A DNA stretch of 64,000 nucleotides from Candidatus Zhuqueibacterota bacterium (GCA_016929295.1 JAFGJB010000153.1:10830-74829); one strand, 5' to 3'. Shown: positions 38,845 to 58,328, counted from the first letter of the stretch. A program made the numbers and translations. Notes: generated from the letters alone by a model not told the origin.

Positions 38845-39513
38845 ATGCGACGATTTAATCTGGTCATTTTTGATGTGGATGGTACGCTGGTGGACACTGC
38901 GACGGATGTGCATATCTGCCTCAATATGGCGCTGGAAAAAATGAAGCTGCCGACGATTACCGTCGAGATGGCAAAAAAAGCGATCGGACCTGGTCCGAAA
39001 GATTTTATCAAATATATACTGGCAGATCGAATTGACCTGGCGGAAGAATTTCATCATGTATTTCGCCCGCTTTATCTGCAGCATTGTGCGGACAATGCCA
39101 TCCCTTTTGATGGCATTGTGGAACTTTTACAGGAGCTTCGCGATAGAAATATAAAGATGGCCGTCGCTACTAACAAGGCCCGTAACAGCAATAATGCTGT
39201 ACTCACAGCATTACAGCTTGATTCCTATTTCGATATCATCTTGTCGCGCGACGATGTTGAAAATTCAAAACCGTCGCCGGACATGCTGTTTAAAGCGTGC
39301 GATCAACTGAATATCCCGCCGGCTAAAGCGCTGATGCTCGGCGACACCTATAACGATATATATGCTGCAAATGCCGCCGGCATGAAAAGTTGTCTGGCGT
39401 TATGGGGATTTTCGGAGGACTATCAGGATCTCATGGCGATTTCTACCTATGCTATCGAAAATCCCCTGCAGATTCTGGATATTATCGAAAGCGACATTCT
39501 TGAAAATGCCTGA
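38845..39513 (+). CDS. HAD-superfamily hydrolase (phosphoglycolate-phosphatase-like subfamily IA)
   Basis: Start at MRRFNLVIFDVDGTLVDT (DxDGT motif I), ..VATNK.. motif II, ..MLGDTYNDIYAANAAG motif III/IV. Confidence 0.8.
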   Translation: MRRFNLVIFDVDGTLVDTATDVHICLNMALEKMKLPTITVEMAKKAIGPGPKDFIKYILADRIDLAEEFHHVFRPLYLQHCADNAIPFDGIVELLQELRDRNIKMAVATNKARNSNNAVLTALQLDSYFDIILSRDDVENSKPSPDMLFKACDQLNIPPAKALMLGDTYNDIYAANAAGMKSCLALWGFSEDYQDLMAISTYAIENPLQILDIIESDILENA

Positions 39514-41802: not shown

Positions 41803-42226
41803 CGACGTTCGTATCGGCCTGGCTCGACTGGATCAATCTCCCCGGAATATGAAAAAGTTTGGCATCACCATGGCTGTGATATTTGGACTGTTGGCCACGC
41901 TGATATTTATTCTCGGCAGCCGGCCGCAGCGCGCCTGGTGGCTGTGGAGTATCGGCGCTCTCTTCCTTGTCCTGGTATTTTTTCTCCCTTTTCTTCTCAA
42001 ACCCATTCATCGTCTCTGGATGGGACTCTCACTCGTCCTCGGCTATTTCATGTCCCGACTCTTGCTCACTCTTCTCTTTTTCCTCGTCATCACTCCTATC
42101 GGCCTGGCAATGCGTCTATTCGGCAAAGATATTCTCAATGAAAAAATAGAGCCTGGCAAAGACAGCTATTGGATTAAAAGACCCGTAAAAAAGATACTGC
42201 CAGATCGCTATGAAAAATTATTCTAA
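41789..42226 (+). CDS. Small polytopic membrane protein (possible SxtJ-like partner of the carbamoyltransferase)
   Basis: Start ATG 41789 overlaps the carbamoyltransferase stop (41800-41802). About 145 aa with 3-4 TM helices. The SxtJ-like label is inferred from gene context only. Confidence 0.45.
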   Translation: MSLISDVRIGLARLDQSPRNMKKFGITMAVIFGLLATLIFILGSRPQRAWWLWSIGALFLVLVFFLPFLLKPIHRLWMGLSLVLGYFMSRLLLTLLFFLVITPIGLAMRLFGKDILNEKIEPGKDSYWIKRPVKKILPDRYEKLF

Positions 42227-42227
42227 A

Positions 42228-42787
42228 TTTAAAAATCACCAATAAGCATGTCGGTTTACTGATTAATTTCAATGTGTTGCAATTGAAAGACGGAGTGAAA
42301 AGGCTTGTAAACAAGTACGATGATAGTGAATGAGCATACATATTTTCATGCCTCGGCGACACTCGGCGTTCCCGGCGGTTGGGTACGCATTGTGGGAATT
42401 AACCAAATTTCACTTTACTTATCCACAGACAAATCTGGAAAAGTGGTCAAAAGCAGTGTAAAAGCTGTCGATTATGTGTTGATGAATTCGAATTTATCCA
42501 CCTTGATTCGGATTATTTTCAACAAGTGGTGATAAGAGCTTTATTATTCACCTTTATTCCACATTTCATTGTTGATATTCTGAAAAAGAATCAGCGTTGT
42601 TTTTTATAAAGTTATAATTAGTTTTTTAACATTATTACTTCTTTTCAACATATCCACAGCGTCTATTACTATAAATTATTTAAATAAATATTAATATATA
42701 TAATAATTATCTGGAACAGATTAAATTTCTTGTCGTATCCCTCATTATTATAAATATCTTTCATAACAGTTAAATTTGGAGGCTCAA
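42228..42787 (+). promoter_or_regulatory. 560-bp AT-rich intergenic region with DnaA-box-like motifs and promoter elements upstream of tldD
   Basis: Perfect TTATCCACA at 42419-42427; one-mismatch boxes TTATCCACC (42494-42502), ATATCCACA (42649-42657), TTATTCACC (42544-42552). About 100 bp nearly pure A/T at 42661-42760. TAAATTTG (42763-42770) resembles an FCB-type -7 element, followed by GGAGG and ATG 42788. Confidence 0.4.
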
Positions 42788-44320
42788 ATGGCAAACGTGA
42801 GCAGAAGGACTTTTCTTAACACGTCCATTGCCGTCGGAGGTGCTGCAGCATTCATGCGAATTATTCCGGGTGCGTGGGTACAATCTGCTAAAGCAGCAGC
42901 TGCGGGATTTTTCGAATCCGAGTTTGGCATGGATGATGAGCTGTGTAAAAAGGCACTCGAAAAGGCGCTGAGCAGAGGCGGCGATTTTGCTGACATCTAC
43001 TTTGAGCACACTGTATCGAATTGGGTGAGTCTGGAGGACGGCAAGGTTGATCGCGCCTACGGCAGTATTGATCTGGGTGTGGGGATCAGAACCGTTAAAG
43101 GAGATCAGACAGGTTATGGCTTCACTCAGGAGCTGACCGAAGAATCGATCCTTGCTGCCGCAGCGACGGCGGCAACGATTGCCGATGGTGCAGCAACTGG
43201 CACGGCCAAAAGCTTTGTCCGCGTGGAAACTGAGAATCACTATCCCCTGGAAAAACTCCTCACCGATATATCGCTTTCTGCCAAACTCCCGTTGGTGAAA
43301 AGCGTGAACGAAAAATGTTTTTCACTGTCCGACCTGATTATAAAGGTCAATGCGACCATGCACGATCAACAAAAAAGGATCATGATAGTGACAAGTGATG
43401 GCGCCAAAGCAGAAGATCTCATTCCGCGCAACTATTTGTCCGCTTCCATTGTGGCTGAAAAAGACGGTCGCCAGGAACGCGCCGGTTGGAATTTTGGTGG
43501 CAGACAGGAATTTTCCTATTTCACCCCGACCGTTGTCGATCGCTTGGCTGATGAGGTTGTGCGCCGCGCAGTCGTACTGTTTGAGGCTGAACAGCCGCCC
43601 GCCGGTGAAATGTCCGTTGTGCTTGGGCCTGGCGTGACTGGTATCCTGCTGCACGAGGCGATTGGCCATGGCATGGAAGCCGATTTCAACCGCAAAGGCA
43701 TCTCGACCTATGCGACAATGATCAGCAAAAAGGTGGCCGAACCTTTTGTCAATATCGTCGATGAAGGCATCACGCCCCGTCAGCTCGGTTCGATAAATGT
43801 TGATGACGAGGGCGTGCCCGGGCAAAGGACGATGTTGGTGGAAAACGGCATCTTGACTAGCTACCTGCACGACCGAATCTCGGCGAAACATTATGGCGTC
43901 AAGCCGACCGGCAACGGCAGGCGGCAAAGTTATCAGCACTATCCCATTCCGCGCATGCGCAATACCTATATGCTAGCCGGCGAGAGCACACCGCAAGATG
44001 TCATAGCATCTGTCAAAAAGGGCATCTACGTCGAAGACATCAGCAACGGCCAGGTGAAAATCGGCGAAGGAGATTTTGCCTTTTATGTGTCGCAGGGCAA
44101 GATGATTGAAAATGGTGAAATCACCAGGCCTGTCAAAGACATCAACATAATGGGTAATGGTCCCAAGATGCTGCAGAATGTGACCATGGTAGCGAATGAT
44201 CTCAAGCTGTACGAAGGCGGCACCGGCATGTGCGGAAAAGACGGACAATCGATGCCGGTTTCATTTGGTCTACCCACCTGTTTGGTGAAATCCATGACTG
44301 TTGGCGGCGTGCAAAAATAG
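42788..44320 (+). CDS. tldD: TldD-family zinc metalloprotease with twin-arginine (Tat) signal peptide
   Basis: Start at the second ATG, after GGAGG. MANVSRRTFLNTSIAVGGAAAFM is a Tat motif (S-R-R-x-F-L). HEAIGHGMEADF HExxxH metal site. TldD/PmbA fold signature (..GEGDFAFYVSQG..). Confidence 0.85.
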   Translation: MANVSRRTFLNTSIAVGGAAAFMRIIPGAWVQSAKAAAAGFFESEFGMDDELCKKALEKALSRGGDFADIYFEHTVSNWVSLEDGKVDRAYGSIDLGVGIRTVKGDQTGYGFTQELTEESILAAAATAATIADGAATGTAKSFVRVETENHYPLEKLLTDISLSAKLPLVKSVNEKCFSLSDLIIKVNATMHDQQKRIMIVTSDGAKAEDLIPRNYLSASIVAEKDGRQERAGWNFGGRQEFSYFTPTVVDRLADEVVRRAVVLFEAEQPPAGEMSVVLGPGVTGILLHEAIGHGMEADFNRKGISTYATMISKKVAEPFVNIVDEGITPRQLGSINVDDEGVPGQRTMLVENGILTSYLHDRISAKHYGVKPTGNGRRQSYQHYPIPRMRNTYMLAGESTPQDVIASVKKGIYVEDISNGQVKIGEGDFAFYVSQGKMIENGEITRPVKDINIMGNGPKMLQNVTMVANDLKLYEGGTGMCGKDGQSMPVSFGLPTCLVKSMTVGGVQK

Positions 44321-44331
44321 GGAGCATAATT

Positions 44332-45654
44332 ATGAGTACCGAGATGAATAATTTATGTGAGTTTGTTTTGGAGACGGCTAAAAAAGCCGGCGCCGATGAC
44401 TGCCGAGTTGCATTTTCCAAAAATCGTTTTGTCGAAGTGCAATATCGCGAGCGCAAGCCGGAGACCGTGAAAGAGGCCACGACACTAGGCGTCAATGTCG
44501 ATATTTATGTGAACGGTCGATACTCGTCGCAGAGCACGGCAGATGTGCGGAAAGAGGCATTGCGGACTTTTGTCGTCAATGCCATAGAGGCGACAAAGTT
44601 GTTGGAAGAAGATCCCTACCGCAGTCTTCCAGATCCCAGCTATTACCAAGGTCGCGCTGATATCGATCTGCAATTGTGCGATTCCGGCTATGAAACAATT
44701 ACACCCGAGCTGAGGCACAGCATGGCCAAAAAGCTTGAGGGCGCCTGTCGTGAAGCTGGCGGCGATGTGGTCATTTCTGTCACGTCGCAAGTTTACGATG
44801 AATTTCAGCAAGAAAAAATACTGACGAGCAATGGTTTTGCCGGTGAAACGCAAGCGACGGTCTGTTTCGCATACGCCGAGATGACGGCGCAAGATGAAGG
44901 TGATCGCCGTCCACAGGGCTATCACTATGTCGTGGATCGATCGTTGAGTAAATTTCCCGACTGTCAGCAAATCGGCAAAGAGGCCGCTGCCAGGACTATG
45001 GAATTGATGGGTGGAAAGAAAATACCGACAGAGACGTTGCCCATCATCATCGAGAATCGCGTTGCGGGTAATGTCGTTGATGGATTTGTCTCGGCGATGA
45101 GCGGCTGGGCGCTGCAGCAAAAACGCTCTTTTCTCATCGATAAAAAAGGGGAACGTGTTGGCAGCGATGTATTCACGCTCGTAGATGATCCTCACATTAT
45201 CGCAGGACTCGGCAGTCGCTTGTACGATGGCGATGGTTTTGCCACGCGCAAGCGCACCATGATTGAAAACGGCATTTTGAATGAATATTACATCGACTGG
45301 TACCGCAGCCGCAAGCTCGGGGTGAATCCAACGACCGGCGGAACATTCAACTTGATTCTGCCGCCGGGCAGCCGCACGGTTCAGGAGATCATGAAAGATC
45401 TGGGACGAGGAATTCTGATCAACGGTTTCATCGGCGGCAACTCCAACTCCAATACCGGCGATTTCTCCATCGGCATCACCGGCACCCTGTTCGAAAACGG
45501 CGAGCGGACCCAGGCGGTGGCCGAGATGAATATCGCCGATAATCACCTCAAATTCTGGCAAAAGCTGGCCGAGACGGCGAATGATCCGTGGACCTATAGC
45601 AGCTGGAGGATGCCGAGTTTGGTGTTTGGGGATGTGGTGGTGTCGGGAGTGTGA
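44332..45654 (+). CDS. pmbA: PmbA/TldE-family protein (partner of TldD)
   Basis: Start at MSTEMNNLCEFVLETAKKAGADD, 11 bp after the tldD stop. TldD/PmbA family C-terminal pattern ..GDFSIGITGTLFENGE..; lacks HExxxH, as PmbA/TldE does. Confidence 0.8.
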   Translation: MSTEMNNLCEFVLETAKKAGADDCRVAFSKNRFVEVQYRERKPETVKEATTLGVNVDIYVNGRYSSQSTADVRKEALRTFVVNAIEATKLLEEDPYRSLPDPSYYQGRADIDLQLCDSGYETITPELRHSMAKKLEGACREAGGDVVISVTSQVYDEFQQEKILTSNGFAGETQATVCFAYAEMTAQDEGDRRPQGYHYVVDRSLSKFPDCQQIGKEAAARTMELMGGKKIPTETLPIIIENRVAGNVVDGFVSAMSGWALQQKRSFLIDKKGERVGSDVFTLVDDPHIIAGLGSRLYDGDGFATRKRTMIENGILNEYYIDWYRSRKLGVNPTTGGTFNLILPPGSRTVQEIMKDLGRGILINGFIGGNSNSNTGDFSIGITGTLFENGERTQAVAEMNIADNHLKFWQKLAETANDPWTYSSWRMPSLVFGDVVVSGV

Positions 45655-45695
45655 GAAAGATTTACGTTCACATTGACATTATTTGATAGTCTGGA

Positions 45696-45780
45696 AAAAC
45701 CAGACCGAGAATTTTCACGAATGAAGGACTTTAGATTTATGTAACAGCGTCACTATGCGCGTTGTTCTCGGTCTGGTTTT
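45696..45780. repeat. 16-bp perfect inverted repeat with 53-nt spacer at the left edge of the low-GC island
   Basis: AAAACCAGACCGAGAA (45696-45711) and TTCTCGGTCTGGTTTT (45765-45780) are exact reverse complements. The right arm is followed by GTCAAGTTTTATATTT. Lies 41 bp after the pmbA stop. Confidence 0.5.
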
Positions 45781-46221
45781 GTCAAGTTTTATATTTGCAT
45801 TTTCTGCAAAACCGCACGTTGACTATTATCCCTAAAAAAAGCAGAGTTGGCAAAGATTTAATATGTTCTATAAACAATCTATAATAGGCTATTAATAGTC
45901 CCTCAGAAACTTGGCCGCTTTCGAAATATTCTGCTTTTAAAGGTTGTTCTCCATATAAAATAATGCCGGGGAAATTAAATCGAACCAAAAATCTACTATG
46001 TGACAATACTTGATATGCCGTCCCGGGAATAGTTAACGATCTTTATATTTTGCACCGACTGTTCTGTAGAATAAGTTTCGCTTCTCATAACTGATATTTT
46101 TCAGGAAATGCATGTAAGCGCCCCCAAGCCATACTGTGAAGGAAAAGACGAAATTGATTGGCTTGAAAAATGGGGCACGAGGTGCGATCCGAAAACAGAT
46201 GCTACTCTATTGGAGAGAGAA

Positions 46222-49200
46222 ATGAAAAAATTATTCTGTATAATTTTGTGCATCCTTGCTGTATCTACGCTTTTCGCGCAAAACAAGATTGATCCTACCC
46301 TCAAAAAAACCATCGAAAACAATACACTGCGGAAAGTCGATGCCGCAGATGTTGAAGTGCTCATAAAAATAACGAATAGCGACCTGTCCGCGTTGGAAAA
46401 AAGTGGCGCCAAAATAAAATACGTCATAGATGATGAATACGTCCGCGCTGCCGTACCCATTTTTAAAATTACTGAATTAGCAAATAATAAAGCCGTTTGC
46501 TACATAACCGGTTCTCGGCAAATGCAGCCACATAACGACATTGCCGCTTGTGTTTGCGGTGGTATCGTGGCAGCACAAGCCGGTTACACCGGAGAAGATG
46601 TTCTCATTGGGATTGTTGACACAGGACTTGATTTCAAGCATCCTGGATTCCTCAATGCAGATGGCAGTACCAGAGTTTTATACTTCTGGGACCAGACCGA
46701 TTTAGGATCAGACCAGCCAACGAACCAATTTTCCTATGGTTCAGAATGGACGAGCGCCGATATTGACGGCGGAGCCTGCACGTCAAAGGACACCGAAGGT
46801 CATGGCACGCACGTTGCCGGTTGTGCGGCGCAGCATTTTTATCATGACGCAGATGAGCAATATAACAGCGGCACGCTTTCGAACTTGCTCATTGTCAAGA
46901 CTGATTTTAATGGCCTGCACATTTTGGACGGTATTGTTCGAATTTTTCAAAAGGCGGAACAACTTGGCAAACCGGCTATTGTGAATCTAAGCTTAGGAAG
47001 TCGATGGGGTCCCCATGATGGTACTGATCCATTAACGGCTGCAACGGACCTGCTTACAGGACCCGGAAAAATTATTGTGCGATCGGCCGGAAATGATGGT
47101 GCTCGCAAATTTCATAACTATGCCATAGCTGATGCCGATGGCAATAGTATGGTGTTTAAGCTGTCGACAACTGTTGAAAATCTCGTAATTGGATGCTGGT
47201 ATGATGGGTCATCGAAAGTCGAAGCTGAAATTTTCTTGCCAGGTAACTTGAGTACGGGAAAAATTGCTACAGGTAAAGAGGCTACATTTAATATTGGCAA
47301 TACCAGCCGCCTGGAAATCTTAAACGCGCCATATGGCGTTGAGAACTATAATGGCGATAATAATTTAATGATTTCCTTTGTTGGCAAAATTCCAGCGGGC
47401 GAATATAGAATAGTTCTTTTCTCCAATGACAGGCCAGCAGTGTATGCTTGGTTGTATGACTGCTCGGTCGATACAAGTTTTGCCTTTGAAAATTCAAGCG
47501 ACCATTTTAGTCTGGCCAACGAAGCCTGTGGACGGAATGTCATTGTCATTGGTGCTGCAGTCACACGCAAAGAATTTTATGCTGTGGACGAACATGGCAA
47601 AGCGGCAACATGGGTAACACACGAAGAGGAAGAAACAGTAGCGTCGTTCAGCTCTGCTGGGCCAACGCGTGATGGCCGCCACAAGCCGGATGTGGTTATG
47701 CCAGGATCTTATATTACCACTGCCTTTTCCACTGATGCTATTTCGTCAGGCCCAGTAGGATCCTTGAGCATGATGCGCGAAGGTCCCATATATATCAATC
47801 CTTCTACAGTGAATACATTTGCCTATGTCCAGGGCACCAGCAGTTCCAGTCCGATATTTGTCAGTACGGCTGCGAAAACTTTTGCCTTTTTTAAAAAGAA
47901 ATTTGGACATTTCCCGGGTCCGACAGATATAATTGATCAAATCATAAAATATGCTGCAAAACCTGTATTCCAGTTGAAGGACGATTGTCAAAAACCAGTC
48001 GCAGGGCTCTCGCCCGTCTGGGATGAAAAAGCCGGATGGGGATATCTGGATTTACGCGCGCTTTTAAAAGAAGATATCCTCATTGTCACATGCGAGCAAA
48101 CTCAAGCAGATCAACTTGAGGTTCAATTTAGTAATCAGCAGGGCGTCGTCGAGAATCTCAATTCATATGTTATCACCGGCGCTTCGGAATCTCGTGTAGT
48201 GGAACTGCTACGACAGGGAGAAAGAGTCACGCTCACCTTGAATACGCCTTTAACTCCCGGCTTTAGAGATACTTTGAAAATCGACGCGGGCTTGGATCAA
48301 CGCCTCATTCCCATAAAAAAAATCGGCACCATTGTCGAATTGACCGATTTAACGACGAGAATGACATGGGATGCTGCACACTCTCCCTATTATGTGCATG
48401 GACAAATTGTCGTATACGAAAATGCATCGCTGACACTTTTAGCGGGCACGCAAATAGAGTTTATGCCCAATCCAAATGATGGATCTTCCGGGATAGTCGT
48501 TTTAGGTGAGCTGAAGGCATGTGGAGAAGAAAACTCGCCTGTTACAATACTGCCAGCAGCCCAAGCGGACTATTGGGATGGTATTTACATTGATCGAAAA
48601 GGGATGGCAAATCTAACCTGTAGTGAAATTGGCTACGCAATAGATGCAATAATGTGTTGGGGAGGAGATCTGGAAATCCACCACTCGATGATTGCGCATG
48701 CAAAAGGATTCGGTGTTTTCCTTGATAGTTGTGCTGCTAAAATCGATCACCTTCTATTGTGGGATACAAACGGCACTTCTGATAGCGGTAGCCTATGGAT
48801 TCAAAATACAATTGCTGACAACAATTTGTCTCACTTGACGCTTTATCAAAATATGCCGAATGGTATAGTTTCTCTAGGGCAACATCCGATAATTATTGAC
48901 TCTAGTATCATTGTTGAGAGCTCCATCTATGCGGAACCATATTATGGCAGCAAAATAATCATTAATGAATCGGATATATATAATTGCCAAATTTTTGGAA
49001 CTGTAAATGAGAGCGAATGCATTAGTGCTGATCCACGCTTTGAAAATCCGGATTCAGGTGATTTTAGACTGCGAGCTGATTCTCCGTGTCCAACATGGGG
49101 TGCCATAATTGACGACATAAATGATAAAAATATACAAGCTTCACCGTCTGCTTTTCGCATACATCAGAACTATCCTAATCCATTCAATGGCCACACCATC

Positions 49201-49425
49201 ATAAATTTTGATATGCCAAGGAAGGTTCATATCAATTTGGCCATATATAATATTCGAGGTGAACTTGTCAAGACATTGGCAGATAAAGAGTACAATACCG
49301 GCTATTACACACTTTCGTGGAATGGTATTGGCGACTCTGGGCAAATAATGTCTAGCGGAATATATTTTTGCCGTCTATCTGGAGACAGTTTTTCGCACAG
49401 TATTCGAATGCTGTACTTAAAATAG
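46222..49425 (+). CDS. S8 (subtilisin-like) serine peptidase with beta-helix region and T9SS C-terminal sorting domain
   Basis: Start at MKKLFCIILCILAVSTLFAQ (signal peptide; RBS GGAGAGAGAA). Catalytic triad contexts IGIVDTGLD, HGTHVAGCAA, GTSSSSPIFV. Right-handed beta-helix-like repeats in the middle. C-terminal ..NYPNPFNGHTIINF..GIYFCRL..MLYLK is a T9SS CTD. Confidence 0.9.
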   Translation: MKKLFCIILCILAVSTLFAQNKIDPTLKKTIENNTLRKVDAADVEVLIKITNSDLSALEKSGAKIKYVIDDEYVRAAVPIFKITELANNKAVCYITGSRQMQPHNDIAACVCGGIVAAQAGYTGEDVLIGIVDTGLDFKHPGFLNADGSTRVLYFWDQTDLGSDQPTNQFSYGSEWTSADIDGGACTSKDTEGHGTHVAGCAAQHFYHDADEQYNSGTLSNLLIVKTDFNGLHILDGIVRIFQKAEQLGKPAIVNLSLGSRWGPHDGTDPLTAATDLLTGPGKIIVRSAGNDGARKFHNYAIADADGNSMVFKLSTTVENLVIGCWYDGSSKVEAEIFLPGNLSTGKIATGKEATFNIGNTSRLEILNAPYGVENYNGDNNLMISFVGKIPAGEYRIVLFSNDRPAVYAWLYDCSVDTSFAFENSSDHFSLANEACGRNVIVIGAAVTRKEFYAVDEHGKAATWVTHEEEETVASFSSAGPTRDGRHKPDVVMPGSYITTAFSTDAISSGPVGSLSMMREGPIYINPSTVNTFAYVQGTSSSSPIFVSTAAKTFAFFKKKFGHFPGPTDIIDQIIKYAAKPVFQLKDDCQKPVAGLSPVWDEKAGWGYLDLRALLKEDILIVTCEQTQADQLEVQFSNQQGVVENLNSYVITGASESRVVELLRQGERVTLTLNTPLTPGFRDTLKIDAGLDQRLIPIKKIGTIVELTDLTTRMTWDAAHSPYYVHGQIVVYENASLTLLAGTQIEFMPNPNDGSSGIVVLGELKACGEENSPVTILPAAQADYWDGIYIDRKGMANLTCSEIGYAIDAIMCWGGDLEIHHSMIAHAKGFGVFLDSCAAKIDHLLLWDTNGTSDSGSLWIQNTIADNNLSHLTLYQNMPNGIVSLGQHPIIIDSSIIVESSIYAEPYYGSKIIINESDIYNCQIFGTVNESECISADPRFENPDSGDFRLRADSPCPTWGAIIDDINDKNIQASPSAFRIHQNYPNPFNGHTIINFDMPRKVHINLAIYNIRGELVKTLADKEYNTGYYTLSWNGIGDSGQIMSSGIYFCRLSGDSFSHSIRMLYLK

Positions 49426-49432
49426 TAGCCTC

Positions 49433-52405
49433 ATGAATGCCGACGTACTACAAAATTACAATCAAAACGATCGTGAGGTGAACATATTTATTTCCTCGAC
49501 ATTTCTTGACATGAACAATGATCGTGATTTTTTAAAGAACAAAGCGTTCTTGCAGCTCGCGGAAATATGTGAAAATAGGGGTGTGATCCTTACAGTCGTC
49601 GATTTGCGCTGGGGTGTTAATACTGATGAGATCGATAGTGAGAACGAAACCGAAAAACTCGAAAAAAAGGTGCTTGATGTTTGCTTTGATAGAATTGACC
49701 GATGTAATTATTTTGTCGGCATTCTTGGGGCGAGATATGGCTATATACCGAGGCATCTTTCAAGTCATATTATCGAACTGTTTGATGAAAAGTCGTCACC
49801 TATTGGACGTTCCGTAACCGAACTTGAGATAATTTATGCGACCCGGAAAAAAGGCTTGAACCAGGATAATATGCTCTTTTGCCTGCGCGATGATGATTAT
49901 TCTAAAAGTTTAGGTGCAGATTTTATCGAACATAATAACGAAAATCGTCAAAAACTAAAAGAACTATGTGATTACGTCAAGAGATATCAACCTCATTTTA
50001 TCGAAGGCTACAAGAATGTTCATGTGCTCAACAAAGGTATATTTGAATTTTTTAAAAATGTTCTAGACAGGCGATTCCCAGCGCCGGCAGCTCATGATCC
50101 GAATGAACTTTATTCATTAACCCACTACTTTTACGCCCTGCGGCAGCGACGATACTATGAAAAAAATGATCTTCTTCACTCAGAATTGAATCAATTCATA
50201 GAAAAGAAAGATCAAACTCTCCTGGTACTTGAAGGGGCGATCGGTTCTGGTAAATCATCTTTGCTAGCAAACTGGGGACTGTCATTGCTCGAAAAGAACA
50301 CAGCTAATGTCATTCTTCACTTTGTTGGGATAAGTAGTCAAAGTACAACATGGCAATCCACTCTAAGACACATGATATATGAACTTTGTTTTGATAACGG
50401 ATTGCCCTTTCTAATGCCTGAGAATGAGCTTGATCTACCCATGCTGCTGTATCAAACATTGCAGACGGTTAGCAAAAAACGCCGTGTGGTCATCGTTATT
50501 GACGGAATAAATAAATTCGAATTTGAAAATGGGACAACAGATTTATTTTGGCTGCCAGGAAATCTGCCCCAGAACGTGTCAATTATCATTTCAACTACAG
50601 CTCCCATCGAACAATTTTATAATCATGACGCTTGTAAATTCAAACTTGGGCATGAAGCTTTCTATGCCAGGGGGCAACAGCGTGACGAATTTATAAAACA
50701 ATACTTGGACAAAATACAATTTCGCGAGCTAAGCAAACAGCAAATTTCAAAGATTAGCAATCATCACCTTGCGTCAACGCCAAAGTTTTTGGTGACGATT
50801 CTGGAGAGTCTTTCATTATTTGGACTCGGAAAACGTGACAGTCCAGAATCAACCGAGAAAAACGACGATTATAAATATTATCTAGATAGCGAACTAGAAT
50901 ATTACATATCATCTAATAGTTATGTTGAATTATACGAGCGGATTTTTGACAAAATTGAGAAATTCAGTCAAGAAAGTAAGGAAATTTTGCGAGATGGCCT
51001 TCGATTTATATTTTACTCAAAAGACGGGCTTGCTGAAGAAGAGGTACTCCATTTAATCAGCAGAACGACCAAAAGTGAAATAATGTATATTGACTGGCAG
51101 CCTGTCTACTTGTCGATAGCAAACCTATTGGTAAATAATTCGGGCTTGCTATCGATCAGAGAAGAAGCAATCCGCCAGGCCGTGCAGAAAAAGTATGCGA
51201 TTGGCAAAGATTCTGAATTAGCATATAGGCAGGAAATACTGAATTATTTTGTGAGAAATAGAAATTCAACTCGTAAACTACAAGAATACGCGTGGCAGCT
51301 ATCACAATTGGGCTACAATGAAAAGTTGTTTAGGTATTTAAAACAGAGATCAGTATTTCATGATTTTTGGAGATTAGATCCTATTTCATTAAAAAAATAT
51401 TTTGTTTTTCTTATTAACAGTAAAGCAATTTATTTAAAAGATATCGCCGAGCATTTTGCAAAATTAGCCAAATCGAACAGTAAGAATGCAAAATTCCTTG
51501 AATCATTGTCTATTTTTTTATTTGATTTGGGTTTCTATGAGCATGCAAAAGAAATACAAGAAGACTTGATCAATCAGTTCAAAACGAAGGACAAAAATAT
51601 CTATCAAAGAACGTTGAGATTACTGGCTAATAGCGAGCTAAGACTTGGCAACTGGAGCAATGCTTATAGATACTATAAAAAGCAAGCATCAATTGTTACG
51701 CCTGCCGTATGTTTGGATGATTTTAATTCATTGCAAAAAAGCTATGGAAATCAGGCTATCGTTCTCGTAAAAATGGGTAAGAGTAAAAGGGCTCTTGAGC
51801 GCCTTGAAAAACAAGAAAATATTTGCAAAGACTATCATTTCTACGATGGTTTGATGAAGTGCTACGGCACATATGCGAATGCTTTTATTCAATTGCGAAA
51901 GTTAAAGGAAGCCTTGGAGTATCAGCATGAACAGGAGATATTAGCCAAGCGTATGAACGATCTCAAGGATTTGCATATCTCGCTTGGCAACAAGGCTGTT
52001 ATTTTGCAGACTTTGGGCAAATTTGAAGAAGCATTTCGTACTCATGAGCAAGAACGAGAAATATGCCTTAAAATTGGTGACCGCTACGGGCTTCAAGCTT
52101 CTTATGGCAATCAGGGCCATATTTTTTTAAAAAGAGGGATGTATATTGAAGCACTATCTCTTTATCTTCGACAAGAAGAAATTTGCATGGACATATCTGA
52201 AATGTGGGGCCTGCAAAATGCTTATTTTAATATAGGCGTTGCTTATACAAGATTAAAAAATCCACTCAAAGCAGCAGACTTTATAAGCAAGTGCATAAAA
52301 ATATGTGTTGAATTGCACTATAAAAAAGACTTACGCAAAGCTAAAATTCTACTATTTGCTTTAAAATTACTTAAACTTGGATTCAAGTCAGCCAAAAAAG
52401 CCTAA
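49433..52405 (+). CDS. NLR-like STAND NTPase: DUF4062-like N-terminal domain, NACHT-type P-loop NTPase, C-terminal TPR array
   Basis: N-term VNIFISSTFLDMNNDRDFL..VDLRWGV..GARYGYIP matches DUF4062 conserved blocks. Walker A LLVLEGAIGSGKSSLLANW (about nt 50231-50254); Walker B RRVVIVIDGINKFE (about nt 50486-50509). C-terminal about 300 aa of 34-aa TPR/KLC-like repeats. No signal peptide or TM. Start 7 bp after the S8 stop. Confidence 0.85.
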   Translation: MNADVLQNYNQNDREVNIFISSTFLDMNNDRDFLKNKAFLQLAEICENRGVILTVVDLRWGVNTDEIDSENETEKLEKKVLDVCFDRIDRCNYFVGILGARYGYIPRHLSSHIIELFDEKSSPIGRSVTELEIIYATRKKGLNQDNMLFCLRDDDYSKSLGADFIEHNNENRQKLKELCDYVKRYQPHFIEGYKNVHVLNKGIFEFFKNVLDRRFPAPAAHDPNELYSLTHYFYALRQRRYYEKNDLLHSELNQFIEKKDQTLLVLEGAIGSGKSSLLANWGLSLLEKNTANVILHFVGISSQSTTWQSTLRHMIYELCFDNGLPFLMPENELDLPMLLYQTLQTVSKKRRVVIVIDGINKFEFENGTTDLFWLPGNLPQNVSIIISTTAPIEQFYNHDACKFKLGHEAFYARGQQRDEFIKQYLDKIQFRELSKQQISKISNHHLASTPKFLVTILESLSLFGLGKRDSPESTEKNDDYKYYLDSELEYYISSNSYVELYERIFDKIEKFSQESKEILRDGLRFIFYSKDGLAEEEVLHLISRTTKSEIMYIDWQPVYLSIANLLVNNSGLLSIREEAIRQAVQKKYAIGKDSELAYRQEILNYFVRNRNSTRKLQEYAWQLSQLGYNEKLFRYLKQRSVFHDFWRLDPISLKKYFVFLINSKAIYLKDIAEHFAKLAKSNSKNAKFLESLSIFLFDLGFYEHAKEIQEDLINQFKTKDKNIYQRTLRLLANSELRLGNWSNAYRYYKKQASIVTPAVCLDDFNSLQKSYGNQAIVLVKMGKSKRALERLEKQENICKDYHFYDGLMKCYGTYANAFIQLRKLKEALEYQHEQEILAKRMNDLKDLHISLGNKAVILQTLGKFEEAFRTHEQEREICLKIGDRYGLQASYGNQGHIFLKRGMYIEALSLYLRQEEICMDISEMWGLQNAYFNIGVAYTRLKNPLKAADFISKCIKICVELHYKKDLRKAKILLFALKLLKLGFKSAKKA

Positions 52406-52426
52406 AAACAAAAAAGGAGAACTAAA

Positions 52427-52789
52427 ATGAAAGTGCTATGCAAAATTTTGATTGTAGCCTTTATCATTCTCTCAATTTCGGGATGCAAGGAATACACAAA
52501 ATTTAAAGTCAGTATTATCAACGACAGTTCATCTGAAATTACAGAAATTGAGCTGGGGATGATTGGCGTAGAAAAGACCGTTTCAGTTAATAGCCTGGCG
52601 GTTGGAGCAAGTACAAAGGTTTTTGTATTTTTATTGAAAAAGCTAGAGGAAGGCGTACCAGTACCAATTAGCTATGGTGATTATAGAGGTGGCTATAGTC
52701 AAAAAGGTGAAAAAAAACCCATATTTATTACCACACCTAATAAAAAAATTGAAATCAAAATAAATGATGATTCCTATTCCCCGATCTAG
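52427..52789 (+). CDS. Small lipoprotein (120 aa), third gene of island operon
   Basis: Lipobox ..FIILSISGC. RBS AAGGAGAAC 6 nt upstream. 21 bp after the NLR gene stop. Low GC like the NLR gene. Confidence 0.55.
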   Translation: MKVLCKILIVAFIILSISGCKEYTKFKVSIINDSSSEITEIELGMIGVEKTVSVNSLAVGASTKVFVFLLKKLEEGVPVPISYGDYRGGYSQKGEKKPIFITTPNKKIEIKINDDSYSPI

Positions 52790-55314
52790 TCAACAAGCAC
52801 AACCTTTAGCTGTCGGACTCTCTCGCCCATCTTCAGCCGCACTAAATAGACCCCGCTCGCCACAGCCTTATCATGCTCATTCAATCCATTCCATACAACG
52901 GAATGCTGCCCCGCGGCTGTCCTCCCCTCAAGCAGAATCCTGACGCGCCGGCCGCACACATCAAATATACTCAAGCGCACATCTTGCTCTTTCGGGACAT
53001 AAAACTCTATCCTCGTCGCGGCGTTGAACGGATTCGGATAGGCTTTTTTCATAACAAAACTATCCGATACCGCCCTTTGAACAACTTTGTTCACAATTTC
53101 GAAAAACGCTTTTATCGAGACATCACTATGGAGTGTCATGGATATTTGCGATTCTTGTTCAGCAATTCCCTCCCAGCCGACGAACCTGAACCCTTCATCG
53201 GGGAGCGCGGCGAGCTGAATGGGGACATCGCGATAGTAGATGCCACTCCACTCTTTTTCTATGGTCAATGAGTTGATCTGCAGCCGCCCGACGCCGCGGG
53301 GCTGCACATCTGCATGCACATCAGCTAAACCAGCGAGATTGAATTCATCTATAACGTGATCATGCAGGTAATCGCGACGATTGGCGAGAAAATTTTCGAC
53401 GTAACTAACATTCCGACGCCACTGCGTTTTGCTGCCGCCCCAGCGCGACAGATGCGCGCCAATTTCAGGATCGAGCTGCGCCGTCAACTTGCCCAGTTTC
53501 GCCAGGGTGACCTCCTCGCTGAAAAAAGAATTCATGAAATCGGCCAACTTGTTGATGAACATACAGGTGAAATTTTCATTTTCCAGTATCTTGCGAAAGA
53601 GAAAAGTGGACTCGGGCGGATTGGGCCAGTCCGGTCCGTCCTCCTCGCGGTAATAGGCGATGGTGTTGTCCATGTAGGCATCCGGCGCAAAGTGAAAATT
53701 GGGCACGAACAGGCGCATGGCGAAGGAATGATCAGTGTCATATAACAGCCAGCGATAACGCGATCCTGGATCATGCGAACGCCAGAATTTGCAGTTGTGG
53801 CCAGGACCGTCATGGTTGGCGAAAAAGATCTGGACAGCCATATAGGTGAGATAGTTGTCGACGTCCATCTGCGTCTTAACGTAATCGGCATGGGCGTCAT
53901 CCTGCAAATCATGGTCGAGGAGATAGTCGATGAGCGAGTTGTAGTGCTCGGCGCTGCCTTCGACGACCAGCGGATAGAGGGTGTGATAATCATCCAAAAT
54001 GTCCACCTCATCCGGATCGACGCCATGATGGGACGCGAGATAATCTTCATTCAGCTTTTCGCGGATCTCATAGATGCCCCAATAATCGCCATTCAGGTAA
54101 AGGTGACAGGGACGGTAAAGTTGATTATCAATATCCACATCCCGATCATCGAGCAGGAGGGCCGTCAAACCATCGCGAAACTGCACGCCACCTTCATTGT
54201 GCGTGTTATCGCTGCCGCCATTGCGCAGTAAAAATGATTTAAAGGTCGTCACGGAATAACCGGGGAAAAGAGCGTACTCCAGTTCGTCCGCACCATAGCC
54301 GCTACGCATGAAAATGGCAAACGATTTTTGCGGCAGCGTGCGCGTTGTCTTGCCGAACATCTTGATGCCCGCATTGACGCTCAAGCCGCGACCATCGGGC
54401 TCATACAGCTCGAGGTGCACCGGCCGCTCCCAGTCTTCCCAATAATTGGCCGGCGGCCCAATGGGATTGCTGGGATAGCCGCCCATGGCCGTGCCATTGC
54501 CGACGACATAGATGCCAATGTCGTCATCAAAAAGGTTGTCCGGATGCGTCGATATCGAGACCAGCGGGATGCCGCTCGTCACATCGACAAAATAGGTATA
54601 AGTGACCACAGCGCCGGCCAGTTTGCCCGTTTCGAAACAACGCGCTTTCAAGACGGTCGTCCGATTGATGGTGATGGGAGAAAGATAAGAGTGAGAGTTG
54701 ATATTCGGATCCGCGCCGTTCGTCGTGTAGCGGATCAGGCTGCCGGCGGTAGACGAGGAGAGGGCGACTGCGAGGGGCTGGCTGTGCAATCCGCCAGGTG
54801 GCGAGATCAACGGTTCGGGCGCATAGCCGGCAGCCGGCGCGGCGTCGTTGGCCGCTCGCGGCGTCGGCCGGCTGTAAAAAGCCCATTGACCCGGATCAGC
54901 AGGCGTGCGTCCGTAGGAATGATCCACAGCAAGAGGGGGGACGGTGAGGTCATCGAGGATCCTGCCCGACGCGTCGGAGAGCAGAATGCGTTCACCCCTG
55001 GATTTGATCTTAAAGTTGGTGTGCAACGAGTTCGGCGTGCGGCGATTTTTGTCGGATGCAAACACGACGAGGAAAGCATTCGTGGCAAGAGAGATGTTGG
55101 GAAAAGTCCATTTGTGCGGTTCTTCGGCATCATCTGACAGTCCATAACCGTTCAGATTGATGGGTGAACCCGGATTATAGAGCTCGATCCAGTCGGGATA
55201 GTCATCATCCTCATCTGCGAGGATGGAGGCATTCAATGACATCACCTCGTTGATGAGCGGAGCTTGAGAAAAGCAGAGTGCAATCAATGAAATTGCCAGC
55301 ATAAAGATTTTCAT
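52786..55314 (-). CDS. CotH-family (atypical kinase) protein with N-terminal lamin-tail domain and T9SS C-terminal sorting domain
   Basis: Start taken at ATG 55314 (MKIFMLAISLIALCFS signal peptide; the track ORF begins 6 nt earlier at TTG). LTD-like segment INEVMSLNAS..DWIELYNPG. CotH core ..YLNGDYWGIYEIREKLNEDYL... C-terminal ..KKAYPNPFNAATRIEF..GVYLVRLKMG..KVVLVD is a T9SS CTD. Confidence 0.85.
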   Translation of the reverse strand: MKIFMLAISLIALCFSQAPLINEVMSLNASILADEDDDYPDWIELYNPGSPINLNGYGLSDDAEEPHKWTFPNISLATNAFLVVFASDKNRRTPNSLHTNFKIKSRGERILLSDASGRILDDLTVPPLAVDHSYGRTPADPGQWAFYSRPTPRAANDAAPAAGYAPEPLISPPGGLHSQPLAVALSSSTAGSLIRYTTNGADPNINSHSYLSPITINRTTVLKARCFETGKLAGAVVTYTYFVDVTSGIPLVSISTHPDNLFDDDIGIYVVGNGTAMGGYPSNPIGPPANYWEDWERPVHLELYEPDGRGLSVNAGIKMFGKTTRTLPQKSFAIFMRSGYGADELEYALFPGYSVTTFKSFLLRNGGSDNTHNEGGVQFRDGLTALLLDDRDVDIDNQLYRPCHLYLNGDYWGIYEIREKLNEDYLASHHGVDPDEVDILDDYHTLYPLVVEGSAEHYNSLIDYLLDHDLQDDAHADYVKTQMDVDNYLTYMAVQIFFANHDGPGHNCKFWRSHDPGSRYRWLLYDTDHSFAMRLFVPNFHFAPDAYMDNTIAYYREEDGPDWPNPPESTFLFRKILENENFTCMFINKLADFMNSFFSEEVTLAKLGKLTAQLDPEIGAHLSRWGGSKTQWRRNVSYVENFLANRRDYLHDHVIDEFNLAGLADVHADVQPRGVGRLQINSLTIEKEWSGIYYRDVPIQLAALPDEGFRFVGWEGIAEQESQISMTLHSDVSIKAFFEIVNKVVQRAVSDSFVMKKAYPNPFNAATRIEFYVPKEQDVRLSIFDVCGRRVRILLEGRTAAGQHSVVWNGLNEHDKAVASGVYLVRLKMGERVRQLKVVLVD

Positions 55315-55323
55315 TTGCAAAAC

Positions 55324-55536: not shown

Positions 55537-55751
55537 GCAAGCCTCATTTTCATACGTGGCAATAATGGATATAAAGATATGAAAATATTTCTTACATTGT
55601 AAAAATATTTCGCGCCTGACTATTTTCGATTTATCGACTGCGTTTACGCGCCTTTATTTTCAATAGGTTGGCGACCTTGAAAATACGATAGTATGGCACA
55701 GATGTTGTCCCATTTTCTTTGGTACAATCTCATCAATCATGGAGGAAAAGC

Positions 55752-58328
55752 ATGCGACACATTTTAACGCTGTTGTGTTTTGTTCTGCCGGCCGCACTCC
55801 TGACGCAGACAACTTTTAGCGCCGATGCCTACGAGCAATTTCTGCAGGATAACGCCAATATGACTGCACAGCAGATCTTGCAACGTCACCAACCTAGTAT
55901 GCAGTATTATAATGATCGCAAAGATAAATTGCAAGTCGCTGATTATGCCTATCTCGATTCCGTGCAGATGAAATACGGGCTCACGGCTAATGAAATGGAA
56001 AAACTGCAGAAAAACCATTTTGTCGTCAGCGAACGGCTTTCTTTCGATTGTTTTGGGCGGGCTCTGCATGATATCTATCAAAAGGATTTGCCTGTCATGG
56101 TGACCAGCGATGCCATTTTGTACGCGTTGCATTTTTCCTATGATCGAATTCTCTTTGATATCGAGCGCACCATACTCGAAGCCAAATTGAAGCAAGTTCT
56201 TGACGGCCTGTATTCGAGTTTTGAAAAACTGCAAAGCGAATACGGCAGTGAGCATGTCTTGCAGGAGCCACTGCAGGACGTCGATCTCTACATCACCCTG
56301 GCAAAATCGCTGCTGGATGAACAAGTGTCGCCGCCGCATCATGCTGACAAGAGCGATGTCGACGCTTTGTGGAAAGCCATTGCCAATGAGCAAATGACTT
56401 TTATGCCGCTATTCTCCGAGCGCGCTCGCAAACTGGATTTCAGCCAGTTCACCGTTCGCGGCCACTATACGAACGAGTTCTGGGATATCGGCGGCAAGCG
56501 TACGCTGGGGAATTACTTCAAGGCCATGATGTGGCTCGGCCGCATGGATTTCTATCTGACACCGCCGCCGGTCGGCCCCGAGGAAATGCCATGGACGCGC
56601 GAAGAGATCAGTCGCATGATCGCCGGCTCGCTTTTGCTGAATGAGCTGCTCGATCTCGCCGGCGTTCGTGACGAACTGAACGAGATCGATGCCATCATCA
56701 ACTTTATGGTCGGCGAGAGCGACAACCTGACGCCGGCGGAGTTGGCAGATGTGGTCGCTGAATTGACTATAACGCCGCTCTCCATCTACGACGAGACGGT
56801 CTACGATGAGCTGCAGAGCGAGCTCGTCTCCGAGGTCGTCTATGGCCAGCGCATCATGTCCGCTTTCTTCATCGTCGATCCTTTTGCCAACAAACCGGAC
56901 GAGCTGCCCATTTCCTATCGCTTGAGCGGGCAACGGTTCATCATCGATTCCTACGTGCTGGCGAATGTGGTCTATGATCGGATCATCTTTGACAATTATA
57001 AAGTGTGGCGGCCGATGCCCGATCCGCTGGATGCGATGTTTGTGCTCGGCAACGACAATGCGCTGCCTCTTTTACAGGAGGAGATCGAAGAATACAAATA
57101 TGCCTCGCAACTCGAAGCCTTGCGCTATCTTGTCGATGCCTACGATGCGGACTTTTGGGGCAACTCGCTCTACAACGTCTGGCTGCAGGGCATTCGCGCT
57201 CTCAATCCATCGGCGCAGGATGAGCACGCGCCCTATTTCATGCGGACCGTCGCCTGGCAGCAGCAAAAGCTGAACACCCAGTTGGCCTCCTGGGCACAGC
57301 TGCGGCACGACAACCTGCTCTACGCCAAACAGTCTTATACCGGCGGCACATCGTGCTCCTATCCGCACTCTTTTGTAGAGCCCTATCCCGATTTCTATCA
57401 ACAGATCGCTGCCTTTGCCGAAAAGGCTGAAAACCAGCTCATCCCCCTGTTGCCGGATGGTTCCTGGGAAGCCAATCTTTTGAAAAGATTTTTTCCTCAA
57501 GTCAGGGAAGTGATGTTGAAACTCAAGGCATTGGCGCAAAAGGAATTGGCCGGACAACCTTTTGCTGAAGATGAGATTCAATGGCTAAAGACCATGCTGT
57601 TCATCGACGGCATGAGCGGCGCGCCGCCGTTCTCCGGCTGGTATTCCGATCTGTTTTATAAACTGGAGATGACAATGGATGGGCAATATGAAGGGCACGA
57701 CTATCTCGTCGCCGATGTGCACACCCAGCCGACGGATCTGGGAGGCGCCGTTGTCGGCCGTGTTTTGCACGTCGGTGTCGGCGAGGTGAATCTCGGGCTC
57801 TTTCTCGCGCAATCGCCGTCCATGCAGTATCAGCCCATGGTTTTTGCCGGACCTGTGATGTCGTACTATGAAAAAATTACCGAGAACTTTAAGAGACATA
57901 CGGACGAGGAATGGGCCGAGCTGGTGATCAAGAAACAGCTGCCGCCACGGCCCGATTGGGTCAATGTCTATTTGACGGATGAAAATGGCAATGCCCGATC
58001 GACTGGTCGCGAACTGCCCGGCATGGAATATGTGCAGACGGACGTGGATGACATCTCCCTGCCGGACAAGAGTTCCTTGTTGCAGAATTACCCGAATCCA
58101 TTCAATCCAACGACATCCCTGCGCTATCAGATCAAAACGGCGGGGCAGGTCAAATTAGCGGTCTATAACACCCTGGGCGAAGAAATTGCCCTGCTGGTGA
58201 ATGAGAGCCATGAGCCAGGTGAATATCGAGTTGAATGGAATGGCCGGGATTTTCCGACCGGACTTTATTTTGCTGTGCTCGAAGCCGGTCAGTTACGCAA
58301 AACGATAAAAATGATATTGGTAAAATAA
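55752..58328 (+). CDS. Large secreted hypothetical protein with T9SS C-terminal sorting domain
   Basis: Start at MRHILTLLCFVLPAALLTQ after GGAGGAAAAGC. 859 aa. C-terminal ..QNYPNPFNPTTSLRYQI..GLYFAVLEAG..KMILVK is a T9SS CTD. No catalytic motif recognised. Confidence 0.75.
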   Translation: MRHILTLLCFVLPAALLTQTTFSADAYEQFLQDNANMTAQQILQRHQPSMQYYNDRKDKLQVADYAYLDSVQMKYGLTANEMEKLQKNHFVVSERLSFDCFGRALHDIYQKDLPVMVTSDAILYALHFSYDRILFDIERTILEAKLKQVLDGLYSSFEKLQSEYGSEHVLQEPLQDVDLYITLAKSLLDEQVSPPHHADKSDVDALWKAIANEQMTFMPLFSERARKLDFSQFTVRGHYTNEFWDIGGKRTLGNYFKAMMWLGRMDFYLTPPPVGPEEMPWTREEISRMIAGSLLLNELLDLAGVRDELNEIDAIINFMVGESDNLTPAELADVVAELTITPLSIYDETVYDELQSELVSEVVYGQRIMSAFFIVDPFANKPDELPISYRLSGQRFIIDSYVLANVVYDRIIFDNYKVWRPMPDPLDAMFVLGNDNALPLLQEEIEEYKYASQLEALRYLVDAYDADFWGNSLYNVWLQGIRALNPSAQDEHAPYFMRTVAWQQQKLNTQLASWAQLRHDNLLYAKQSYTGGTSCSYPHSFVEPYPDFYQQIAAFAEKAENQLIPLLPDGSWEANLLKRFFPQVREVMLKLKALAQKELAGQPFAEDEIQWLKTMLFIDGMSGAPPFSGWYSDLFYKLEMTMDGQYEGHDYLVADVHTQPTDLGGAVVGRVLHVGVGEVNLGLFLAQSPSMQYQPMVFAGPVMSYYEKITENFKRHTDEEWAELVIKKQLPPRPDWVNVYLTDENGNARSTGRELPGMEYVQTDVDDISLPDKSSLLQNYPNPFNPTTSLRYQIKTAGQVKLAVYNTLGEEIALLVNESHEPGEYRVEWNGRDFPTGLYFAVLEAGQLRKTIKMILVK

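Follow-up and report, generated by a model that had tools for sequence, protein, structure and literature searches.

Here we describe a two-gene locus in a 64,000-nucleotide stretch of DNA from Candidatus Zhuqueibacterota bacterium (GCA_016929295.1 JAFGJB010000153.1:10830-74829), a metagenome-assembled genome (MAG) of candidate division KSB1. This whole stretch is called the window, and coordinates given without a contig name are counted from its first letter. The first gene encodes a subtilisin-like protease of family S8 with a Sec signal peptide and the C-terminal domain (CTD) typical of type IX secretion system (T9SS) cargo. The second encodes an NLR-like protein in which a DUF4062 domain, also called NIR, is followed by a NACHT core and tetratricopeptide repeats (TPR). 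A small lipoprotein gene comes third, and an earlier note, made from the sequence alone, had read all three as one tightly coupled operon. The open reading frames (ORFs) and the two gaps of 7 and 21 bp that it gave proved exact, as did its observation that a Shine-Dalgarno (SD) sequence is absent from the first gap and that AAGGAG is present in the second. The features of the three genes are as follows.

46222..49425, + strand: S8 gene, 1067 aa
46222..46278, + strand: signal peptide of S8, aa 1-19, MKKLFCIILCILAVSTLFA then QNK
46591..47958, + strand: S8 catalytic domain (PF00082), aa 124-579
48319..49101, + strand: beta-helix of S8, aa about 700-960, with the family motif SPYY(V/I)HG; PF13229/NosD in homologues; predicted local distance difference test score (pLDDT) 75-93
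49171..49422, + strand: T9SS type-A CTD of S8, aa 984-1067; TIGR04183, 29.3 bits (cut-off 23)
49426..49432, + strand: S8/NLR junction of 7 nt, TAGCCTC, without a purine-rich SD and without a hairpin
49433..52405, + strand: NLR-like gene, 990 aa
49472..49987, + strand: NIR/DUF4062 TIR-like NADase domain, aa 14-185; PF13271, 51.3 bits (cut-off 24.7)
50177..50692, + strand: NACHT/STAND NTPase core, aa about 249-420; PF05729, 27.0 bits (cut-off 26.7), and NPHP3_N, 25.8 bits (cut-off 24.8)
51500..52327, + strand: putative C-terminal TPR sensor, aa about 690-965, LGN/Pins-like
52427..52789, + strand: small lipoprotein gene, 120 aa

The protease and the NLR-like protein

The S8 protein is built from a Sec signal, a propeptide-like region, a catalytic domain with an inserted beta domain, an Ig-like linker, a right-handed beta-helix and the T9SS type-A CTD. 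The Sec signal was called from the N-terminal hydrophobic segment (aa 1-23) and from its conservation in all orthologues. The mature protein would begin with QNKID, and QNK(I/L)D is kept in all family members together with the signal peptide, the catalytic triad and the CTD. The catalytic domain matches PF00082 at 87.7 bits (cut-off 21.8; 1e-24), and the triad residues D133 (codon 46618-46620), H194 (46801-46803) and S540 (47839-47841), along with the oxyanion residue N291, are invariant across 11 family members. In the CTD the NYPNPFN motif is conserved, the PF18962 match is borderline (26.8 against a cut-off of 27), and the predicted model resembles the CTDs of PorZ, PorU and RemZ. The beta-helix, again in a predicted model, resembles tailspike and pectate-lyase folds. 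The closest solved folds to the catalytic domain are Csp-type subtilases; since the full-length model is poor in this half (pLDDT 60.6), such fold matches are indicative only. These features predict an active protease that is exported via Sec and T9SS, and they bear out the earlier claim of a signal peptide combined with a T9SS CTD.

The start codon was assigned by comparison. An ATG at 46108 also lies in the open frame, upstream of ATG 46222, which we take as the start because the orthologues and the NCBI annotation begin at the signal peptide. The Logan gene call adds 38 aa upstream of the signal peptide (46108-46221) and so disagrees with the comparative evidence. GGAG stands 8 nt ahead of ATG 46222. 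The family itself is tiny: a search of 1.84 billion representative proteins returned about six clusters at 50% identity that are colinear with the non-catalytic half. Members are 1067-1267 aa long and 34-42% identical to the window S8, and each of them has the signal peptide, S8 domain, beta-helix and CTD. A metagenome scan with a profile of the non-catalytic half added no confirmed relatives from its second alignment, and its first alignment was too divergent.

The NLR-like protein begins at ATG 49433, seven nucleotides after the TAG stop of S8 (49423-49425). The NCBI gene call places its start at Met27, 26 aa further on (49433-49510 being left out). We consider ATG 49433 the better start, because the first conserved strand of DUF4062, FISSTF, would be lost with a start at Met27. 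A 17-nt inverted repeat (49428-49444 and 49715-49731, 88% complementary, 270 nt apart) has its left arm across this start codon; it could occlude initiation of NLR translation, or it could have arisen by chance.

Domain searches place DUF4062 (PF13271) at aa 18-136, NACHT at 264-389 and TPR at about 700-960. The N-terminal domain matches the NIR crystal chain of TEP1 (PDB 11gz_A) with E=5e-20, the segment GRSVTELEI aligning with GRSVTEMEV. Two glutamates, E130 (49820-49822) and E132 (49826-49828), are invariant among the closest relatives; the catalytic Glu would be one of these. The NACHT core has a Walker A motif, GAIGSGKSS, with K274 at 50252-50254, and a Walker B motif, VVIVID, with D357 at 50501-50503. 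The nearest solved relatives of the TPR array are the peptide-binding repeats of LGN/Pins, and homologues of the whole protein match the NPHP3_N, NPHP3_hel and TPR_NPHP3 models. A scan for hydrophobic segments in the NLR found none, in agreement with the earlier statement that it carries no secretion signal, and the protein is predicted to be cytoplasmic. PADLOC-DB v2 gave no match to an Avs1-5 or bNACHT family, just generic TPR (3e-6) and mad8 (0.007), and its orthologues on contigs L002 and L020 likewise matched no described defence family.

The DUF4062 domain has lately been described as a TIR-like NADase, NIR, with a catalytic glutamate, occurring in both bacteria and humans (10.64898/2026.05.01.722283, 10.64898/2026.09.04.749371, 10.64898/2026.06.25.731849), and the glutamate itself is documented in two of these reports (10.64898/2026.05.01.722283, 10.64898/2026.09.04.749371). 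It is the effector of the anti-phage systems NIR-Avs2, Swarozyc, Evangelion, Vulcan and Vesta (10.64898/2026.05.01.722283, 10.64898/2026.09.04.749371, 10.64898/2026.06.25.731849), and its human carriers are TEP1, NPHP3 and NWD1/2 (10.64898/2026.05.01.722283). According to the 2026 DUF4062 preprints, NIR domains are enriched beside defence genes and every tested example is anti-phage. The window NLR is a new member of this recently defined NIR-NLR kind; by analogy we would expect an NADase with a role in phage defence, which most likely executes through depletion of NAD+.

An exported protease next to a STAND protein might also be read quite differently, as a cytosolic effector or maturation protease that the STAND protein activates, in the manner of gasdermin/NLR-protease or IetAS systems; the earlier note had entertained such a role by comparison with peptidases fused to STAND proteins. 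In NLR-like and gasdermin systems of bacteria and fungi, S8 and CHAT proteases do stand in for each other as effector modules (PMC8851545, 10.1101/2021.06.07.447441), and PADLOC-DB v2 returns weak matches of the window protease to 'subtilase' and to IetS. The IetS match has an E-value of 0.0054, however, with no IetA nearby; no gasdermin or other substrate gene lies near the cassette; and the NLR already has an effector of its own in NIR. Because the Sec signal, the N-terminus of Q-rule type and the T9SS CTD are kept in every family member, S8 does not look like a cytosolic effector of the fused type, and we regard this explanation as very improbable.

Conservation of the pair across lineages

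Members of the S8 family with readable flanks fall into nine evaluable lineages, all genomes being MAGs, and in all nine (9/9) the protease gene has a same-strand neighbour encoding a cytoplasmic, TPR-bearing protein of a cell-death or immune type. In three independent lineages, namely the window, the L002/L003 contigs and the Calditrichaeota genome CLD5, the order is S8 followed by NIR-NACHT-TPR, and the outer flanks are unlike in all three. The contigs L002 and L003 come from KSB1-type MAGs and are counted as one lineage because they are 88-93% identical to each other. Their S8 is 40% identical to that of the window, and 51 nt after it stands an NLR gene (988 aa, DUF4062-NACHT-TPR) whose product is 32% identical to, and colinear with, the window NLR over 990 aa. 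CLD5 holds the closest homologue of both window proteins, at 42% for S8 (P0122) and 34% for the NLR (P0003). Its S8 contig (L004) breaks inside the CTD, and its NLR contig (L020) starts with that CTD (1-388) and completes it, the NLR beginning 126 nt after the CTD ends. The two contigs overlap inside the CTD with a few single-nucleotide polymorphisms, so the split is probably an assembly break caused by strain variation.

In a sister clade of S8 the partner is a different protein on the other side. A TPR protein with a caspase-like CHAT domain (TPR-CHAT) is encoded directly upstream in six of six lineages (L005-7, L008/9, L010/11, L012, L013 and L128), 30-114 nt before S8 and on the same strand. 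These proteins are about 1020-1085 aa long, lack a signal peptide and are mutually orthologous at 36-48% identity, their S8 partners being 39-55% identical, so that the two diverge in parallel. Synteny shared among the six lineages beyond the pair itself was not found. A TPR-CHAT protein with a secreted-protease partner appears to be an undescribed standalone caspase-like module. The pairs, TPR-CHAT then S8, are at the following positions.

L005:512-7446
L010:4887-11804
L012:662-7382
L013:1389-8166
L008:1-6117
L128:1021-7925

Two of these loci have a further gene. On L008 (6196-7227), and likewise on L009, a cytoplasmic TIR-DUF4384 gene comes right after S8, and a TIR gene beside a caspase-like protease recalls the TIR-activated caspase-like defence systems. 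On L012 (7431-9773) a ClpB-like double-AAA+ protein (PADLOC DolB/PDC-M37B-like, 1e-39) is encoded 48 nt past S8. The partners of S8 have no signal or transmembrane segment at the N-terminus. A relay across the membrane through TIR-DUF4384 or the partners was considered and set aside, as transmembrane segments were not found.

Such a pattern is hard to square with coincidental hitch-hiking, in which the genes would be neighbours by chance or through a shared integration hotspot. It is true that only three lineages with the S8-NLR form are known, that S8 and NLR differ in GC content (0.437 and 0.369) and that 106 other NIR-NLR loci, described below, have no adjacent S8. Against this stand the same-strand death-type neighbour in every evaluable lineage, outer flanks that are never shared, the adjacency in a single genome, CLD5, of the closest homologues of both window proteins, and the parallel divergence of S8 and its partner. 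Chance adjacency is thus already disfavoured, and we think it improbable. From conserved gene order, then, S8 and NLR are probably one working two-gene module. The earlier suspicion that their association was more than coincidence held up, since two other divergent lineages have the pair within flanks of their own; of the three-gene order that it proposed to look for elsewhere, S8 followed by DUF4062-NACHT-TPR recurs and the lipoprotein does not.

The association was also examined in reverse. A profile of the NLR, run against GTDB genomes and JGI metagenomes, gave 108 loci, and in 106 of them the NLR ORF could be delineated. CLD5 apart, none of these 106 loci of wider relatives has an adjacent S8 by tblastn or by a profile hidden Markov model of the catalytic domain; at one locus a weak S8-like ORF lies 3.8 kb away on the opposite strand. 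A general association between S8 and NIR-NLRs was therefore rejected, and the link is limited to one NLR subclade, so that co-occurrence, which the earlier note had made the check on its idea, holds for the closest relatives and fails for the wider ones. What the S8-linked NLRs have in common is a C-terminal TPR region of their own (41% and 37% identity, 204 and 176 bits), the scores of 117 other NLR relatives being at most 118 bits; the central NLR region does not separate the subclade.

The usual upstream partner of the other NIR-NLRs is a gene of another sort. In about 15 of the 106 loci a gene with a RyR domain (PF02026) lies directly upstream, on the same strand, of the DUF4062/NIR-NACHT gene (L023, L024, L025, L027, L029, L042, L068, L071, L104, L105, L107, L117 and L118). 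The N-terminal parts of the RyR proteins vary between TPR-S, RelA_SpoT with SLOG, and TrkA_N with a transmembrane segment. These proteins could be nucleotide- or ADP-ribose (ADPR)-sensing partners of the NADase, and the three DUF4062 preprints make no mention of such a neighbourhood.

How protease and NLR may be connected

The explanation that we favour, with a probability of about 0.55 as a whole, is that S8 and NLR form a conserved, horizontally acquired module in which the NLR is an NADase executioner and S8 acts upstream of it. A ligand would bind the C-terminal TPR array and cause the NACHT core to oligomerise, by analogy with NIR-Avs2, Swarozyc and Vulcan; oligomerisation would switch on the NIR NADase, and the resulting depletion of NAD+ would lead to growth arrest or abortive infection. 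The cytoplasmic partner varies among NIR-NACHT-TPR (downstream), TPR-CHAT (upstream) and, in one lineage, an additional TIR-DUF4384 protein. Because S8 stays constant while this partner is exchanged, we place it upstream, as something monitored or as the maker of a signal, and not as the killer. The TPR sensor might then read S8 itself (as pre-protein or after re-entry) or its peptide products in the cytoplasm, where such a signal would appear once Sec/T9SS export is blocked, the proton-motive force collapses or the envelope is breached. By pure inference we favour coupling through mislocalised S8 or its products, and we likewise infer the contact between S8 and TPR and the direction of signalling.

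Several observations pull the other way. Most NIR-NLR relatives exist without any S8, and the form with S8 is known from three lineages only, all of them metagenome-assembled. We know of no route by which a soluble cytoplasmic sensor and a surface-bound protease would come into contact. In CLD5 the S8 and NLR genes are separated by a terminator-like 8-bp hairpin with U7 after it (-12.9 kcal/mol, z -2.1), and strict co-transcription is therefore not universal. On L002/L003 the order is RyR gene (L003:2-1621), S8, NLR, and since RyR genes are the usual upstream partner of other NIR-NLRs, S8 may have entered an older RyR/NIR-NLR pair. The surroundings in the window are housekeeping genes and not a defence island, and the PADLOC models place neither S8 nor the NLR in a known system. 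Finally, the NLR and TPR-CHAT partners are only generically similar in their TPR arrays (38-41 bits). As the arrays of the two partner types are not specifically related, a common S8-binding sensor is not evident, and the idea of one S8-binding TPR shared by NLR and TPR-CHAT is not supported.

Some of these same facts suit an arrangement in which two independent layers of defence, a surface S8 and an intracellular abortive-infection system (NIR-NLR or TPR-CHAT), are transferred together without signalling to each other; outside the cell, S8 may degrade phage particles, receptor-binding proteins or the proteins of competitors. The two proteins are predicted to reside in different compartments, the beta-helix of S8 resembles tailspike/pectate-lyase folds, the CLD5 hairpin permits separate expression, and NIR-NLR relatives work as single genes elsewhere. 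Yet defence islands shuffle fast, and here adjacency, order and strand are kept down to 34-42% identity of S8 in nine lineages; the partner is swapped for another TPR-bearing death module and never just lost; and the S8-linked NLRs carry a sensor domain type of their own. Two uncoupled layers are thus unlikely in our view, with a small but real chance of being right. Even if S8 were no more than an extracellular layer that travels along, a stable defence cassette of two layers would have been defined.

A role outside immunity has also to be weighed. The TPR proteins might regulate or police protease export, or run a programme of developmental or starvation-induced death and scavenging, the NLR being an NPHP3-like regulator. 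Regulated release of a subtilisin has a precedent in Myxococcus PopC, under the PopC/PopD arrangement. The neighbours in the window are metabolic genes and T9SS cargo (CotH, DUF3160) without defence or mobile genes, and the domain architecture is that of eukaryotic NPHP3, for which no immune role is known. The partners, on the other hand, bear domains of executioner type (an NADase with its catalytic motif, a caspase-like CHAT, a TIR), the company and anti-phage record of NIR domains described above point towards defence, and the cassette here is a foreign, low-GC island; we count a non-immune function as a long shot. The further suggestion in the earlier note, of a toxin/sensor/immunity-like arrangement, found no support.

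Within the favoured reading of an upstream S8, a more specific version would make the exported protease a self-encoded sentinel ligand, with swappable cytosolic death modules that guard the integrity of compartments rather than recognise a phage protein. Bacteria would then have their own form of the cytochrome-c/Apaf-1 principle, with S8 in the role of cytochrome c by logic only, and we offer it as a doubtful, if possible, extension. In Apaf-1/cytochrome c, and in the TPR receptors of RRNPP systems (Rap/AimR-type), the cell's own product, which normally stays in or passes through another compartment, is read by a STAND or TPR receptor in the cytosol; the likeness to the window pair is one of logic alone, with no homology on the ligand side.

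Comparison with described systems helps to place the pair. PsAvs2 of Pseudomonas chlororaphis (10.64898/2026.09.04.749371) has, like the window NLR, an N-terminal NIR with a catalytic Glu, a central STAND module and C-terminal TPR, and the same mechanism would be expected, ligand-induced oligomerisation followed by NAD+ depletion. PsAvs2, however, consists of one gene and recognises phage terminase, whereas the window NLR has a NACHT/NPHP3-like STAND, matches no Avs or bNACHT model and has next to it an exported S8, apparently obligatory and without parallel in the described NIR systems. The eukaryotic proteins NPHP3, TEP1 and NWD1-2 (10.64898/2026.05.01.722283) share its domain order, DUF4062-NACHT-repeats, but the window NLR is bacterial and lies on a horizontally acquired island, and they have no known partner comparable to the S8 protease. 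In Vesta (VstA, a NIR protein, and VstB, an alkaline phosphatase), Swarozyc, Evangelion and Vulcan, NIR is the NADase executioner, as proposed here, and in Vesta the NIR gene is operon-linked to an accessory enzyme gene without a killing role. These four differ in having other sensors, no STAND module and no secreted protease, the Vesta accessory enzyme being a phosphatase. The CHAT, S8 and trypsin proteases beside gasdermins, the S8 of fungal HET-Q2 and the TPR-CHAT 'Craspase' of type III-E systems also combine TPR or STAND with S8 or CHAT in cell-death immunity, but those proteases are cytosolic and act as effector or activator of a neighbouring substrate, whereas the window S8 is exported and has no substrate gene beside it.

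The pairing of a T9SS-exported S8 with genes for a cytoplasmic NIR-NLR or TPR-CHAT, seemingly obligatory as read from gene neighbourhoods, is undescribed in the searchable literature. NIR/DUF4062 NLR-like proteins are newly recognised as NADase immune effectors, the activators of most of which are not known. The S8 pairing may offer a concrete way to test a new trigger logic, be it surveillance of compartments or secretion or self-made peptide signals, and it would be a first functional clue for the standalone TPR-CHAT proteins of FCB-group bacteria.

The cassette and its surroundings

The third gene of the window cassette looks like a lineage-specific passenger outside the conserved module. 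It begins at ATG 52427, after the TAA stop of the NLR (52403-52405) and the 21 nt with AAGGAG, and its product has a lipobox, LSISG, with a lipidated-type C20 (ISG|C20) and no family match. Structure prediction gives it a generic beta-sandwich (pLDDT 73), closest to a protein of E. rectale that is itself uncharacterised. Among 5.8 billion clusters it has two homologues only. The first, at 71% identity, is encoded on a contig of 2.3 kb (L019) behind an unrelated protein with a T9SS CTD. The second, at 61% identity, is 183 aa long, has an extra N-terminal domain but no lipobox, and stands directly upstream of a 2370-aa SpvB/TcdB/RHS toxin (L014:4801-12617; L015-L018). The lipobox is kept in the homologue P0242 and lacking in P0243. 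Neither homologue adjoins an NLR or an S8 catalytic domain, and no homologue is present at the L002/L003 pair. With two homologues in unrelated contexts and a generic fold, the lipoprotein was rejected as a component of the system, and the three-gene operon of the earlier note shrinks to a pair. The genes around the L014 toxin locus look archaeal.

Within the window, terminator-like sites were sought at both junctions of the cassette and none was found, and the junctions fold no better than shuffled sequence (z -0.43 for the 7-nt and +1.25 for the 21-nt junction). For the window this fits the co-transcription proposed earlier. At their stops the lipoprotein gene and a convergent gene for CotH, a T9SS cargo (52786..55320, - strand), share 4 nt (52786-52789), and there is therefore no space for terminators there. 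Two further features lie ahead of the S8 gene.

45696..45780, + strand: inverted repeat with perfect 16-bp arms and a 53-nt spacer, AAAACCAGACCGAGAA ... TTCTCGGTCTGGTTTT, just past a tldD/pmbA-type gene
45800..46221, + strand: AT-rich cassette leader, GC 0.34 at 45800-46099

The host operon probably ends at this repeat, which would also be the left border of the low-GC island. The leader holds promoter-like sites such as TTAATA-16-TATAAT at 45858-45885, which are consensus matches only, to a consensus that may not be that of KSB1. An Rfam search of 45000-53500 returned no match, and so no regulatory RNA was recognised.

The three genes had been said to share the same low GC; all are low against the genes on both sides (0.52-0.53), but the island is graded, at 0.437 for S8, 0.369 for the NLR and 0.347 for the lipoprotein. 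It is not an assembly chimera, because the independent Logan assembly L001 matches the window identically over 44081-53704, spanning both island borders. A cassette of about 7 kb probably entered this KSB1 genome recently by horizontal transfer; the low-GC island fits the co-acquisition suggested before. The cassette is compositionally foreign only in the window; in the other genomes the GC of the pair equals that of its surroundings. Flanking direct repeats, an integrase or a tRNA were not found near the cassette, nor were defence or mobile-element genes in its neighbourhood. An origin from phage or plasmid was rejected: there was no match among phage records, viral contigs held no relatives of S8 or the NLR, and plasmid matches were partial and to the NLR only.

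Two more low-GC stretches occur upstream, at 42001-43000 (0.38) and 38001-39000 (0.42), around the start of a tldD-type gene and a 207-aa ORF without a Pfam match (37822-38445, - strand). Otherwise the neighbourhood consists of housekeeping and metabolic genes together with T9SS cargo, including tldD/pmbA-type peptidases, CotH and DUF3160. Both CotH and the DUF3160 protein (55719-58328) carry T9SS CTDs, an indirect hint that the host may encode the secretion machinery, and S8, CotH (52786-55320, - strand) and the DUF3160 protein make a run of three T9SS-cargo genes.

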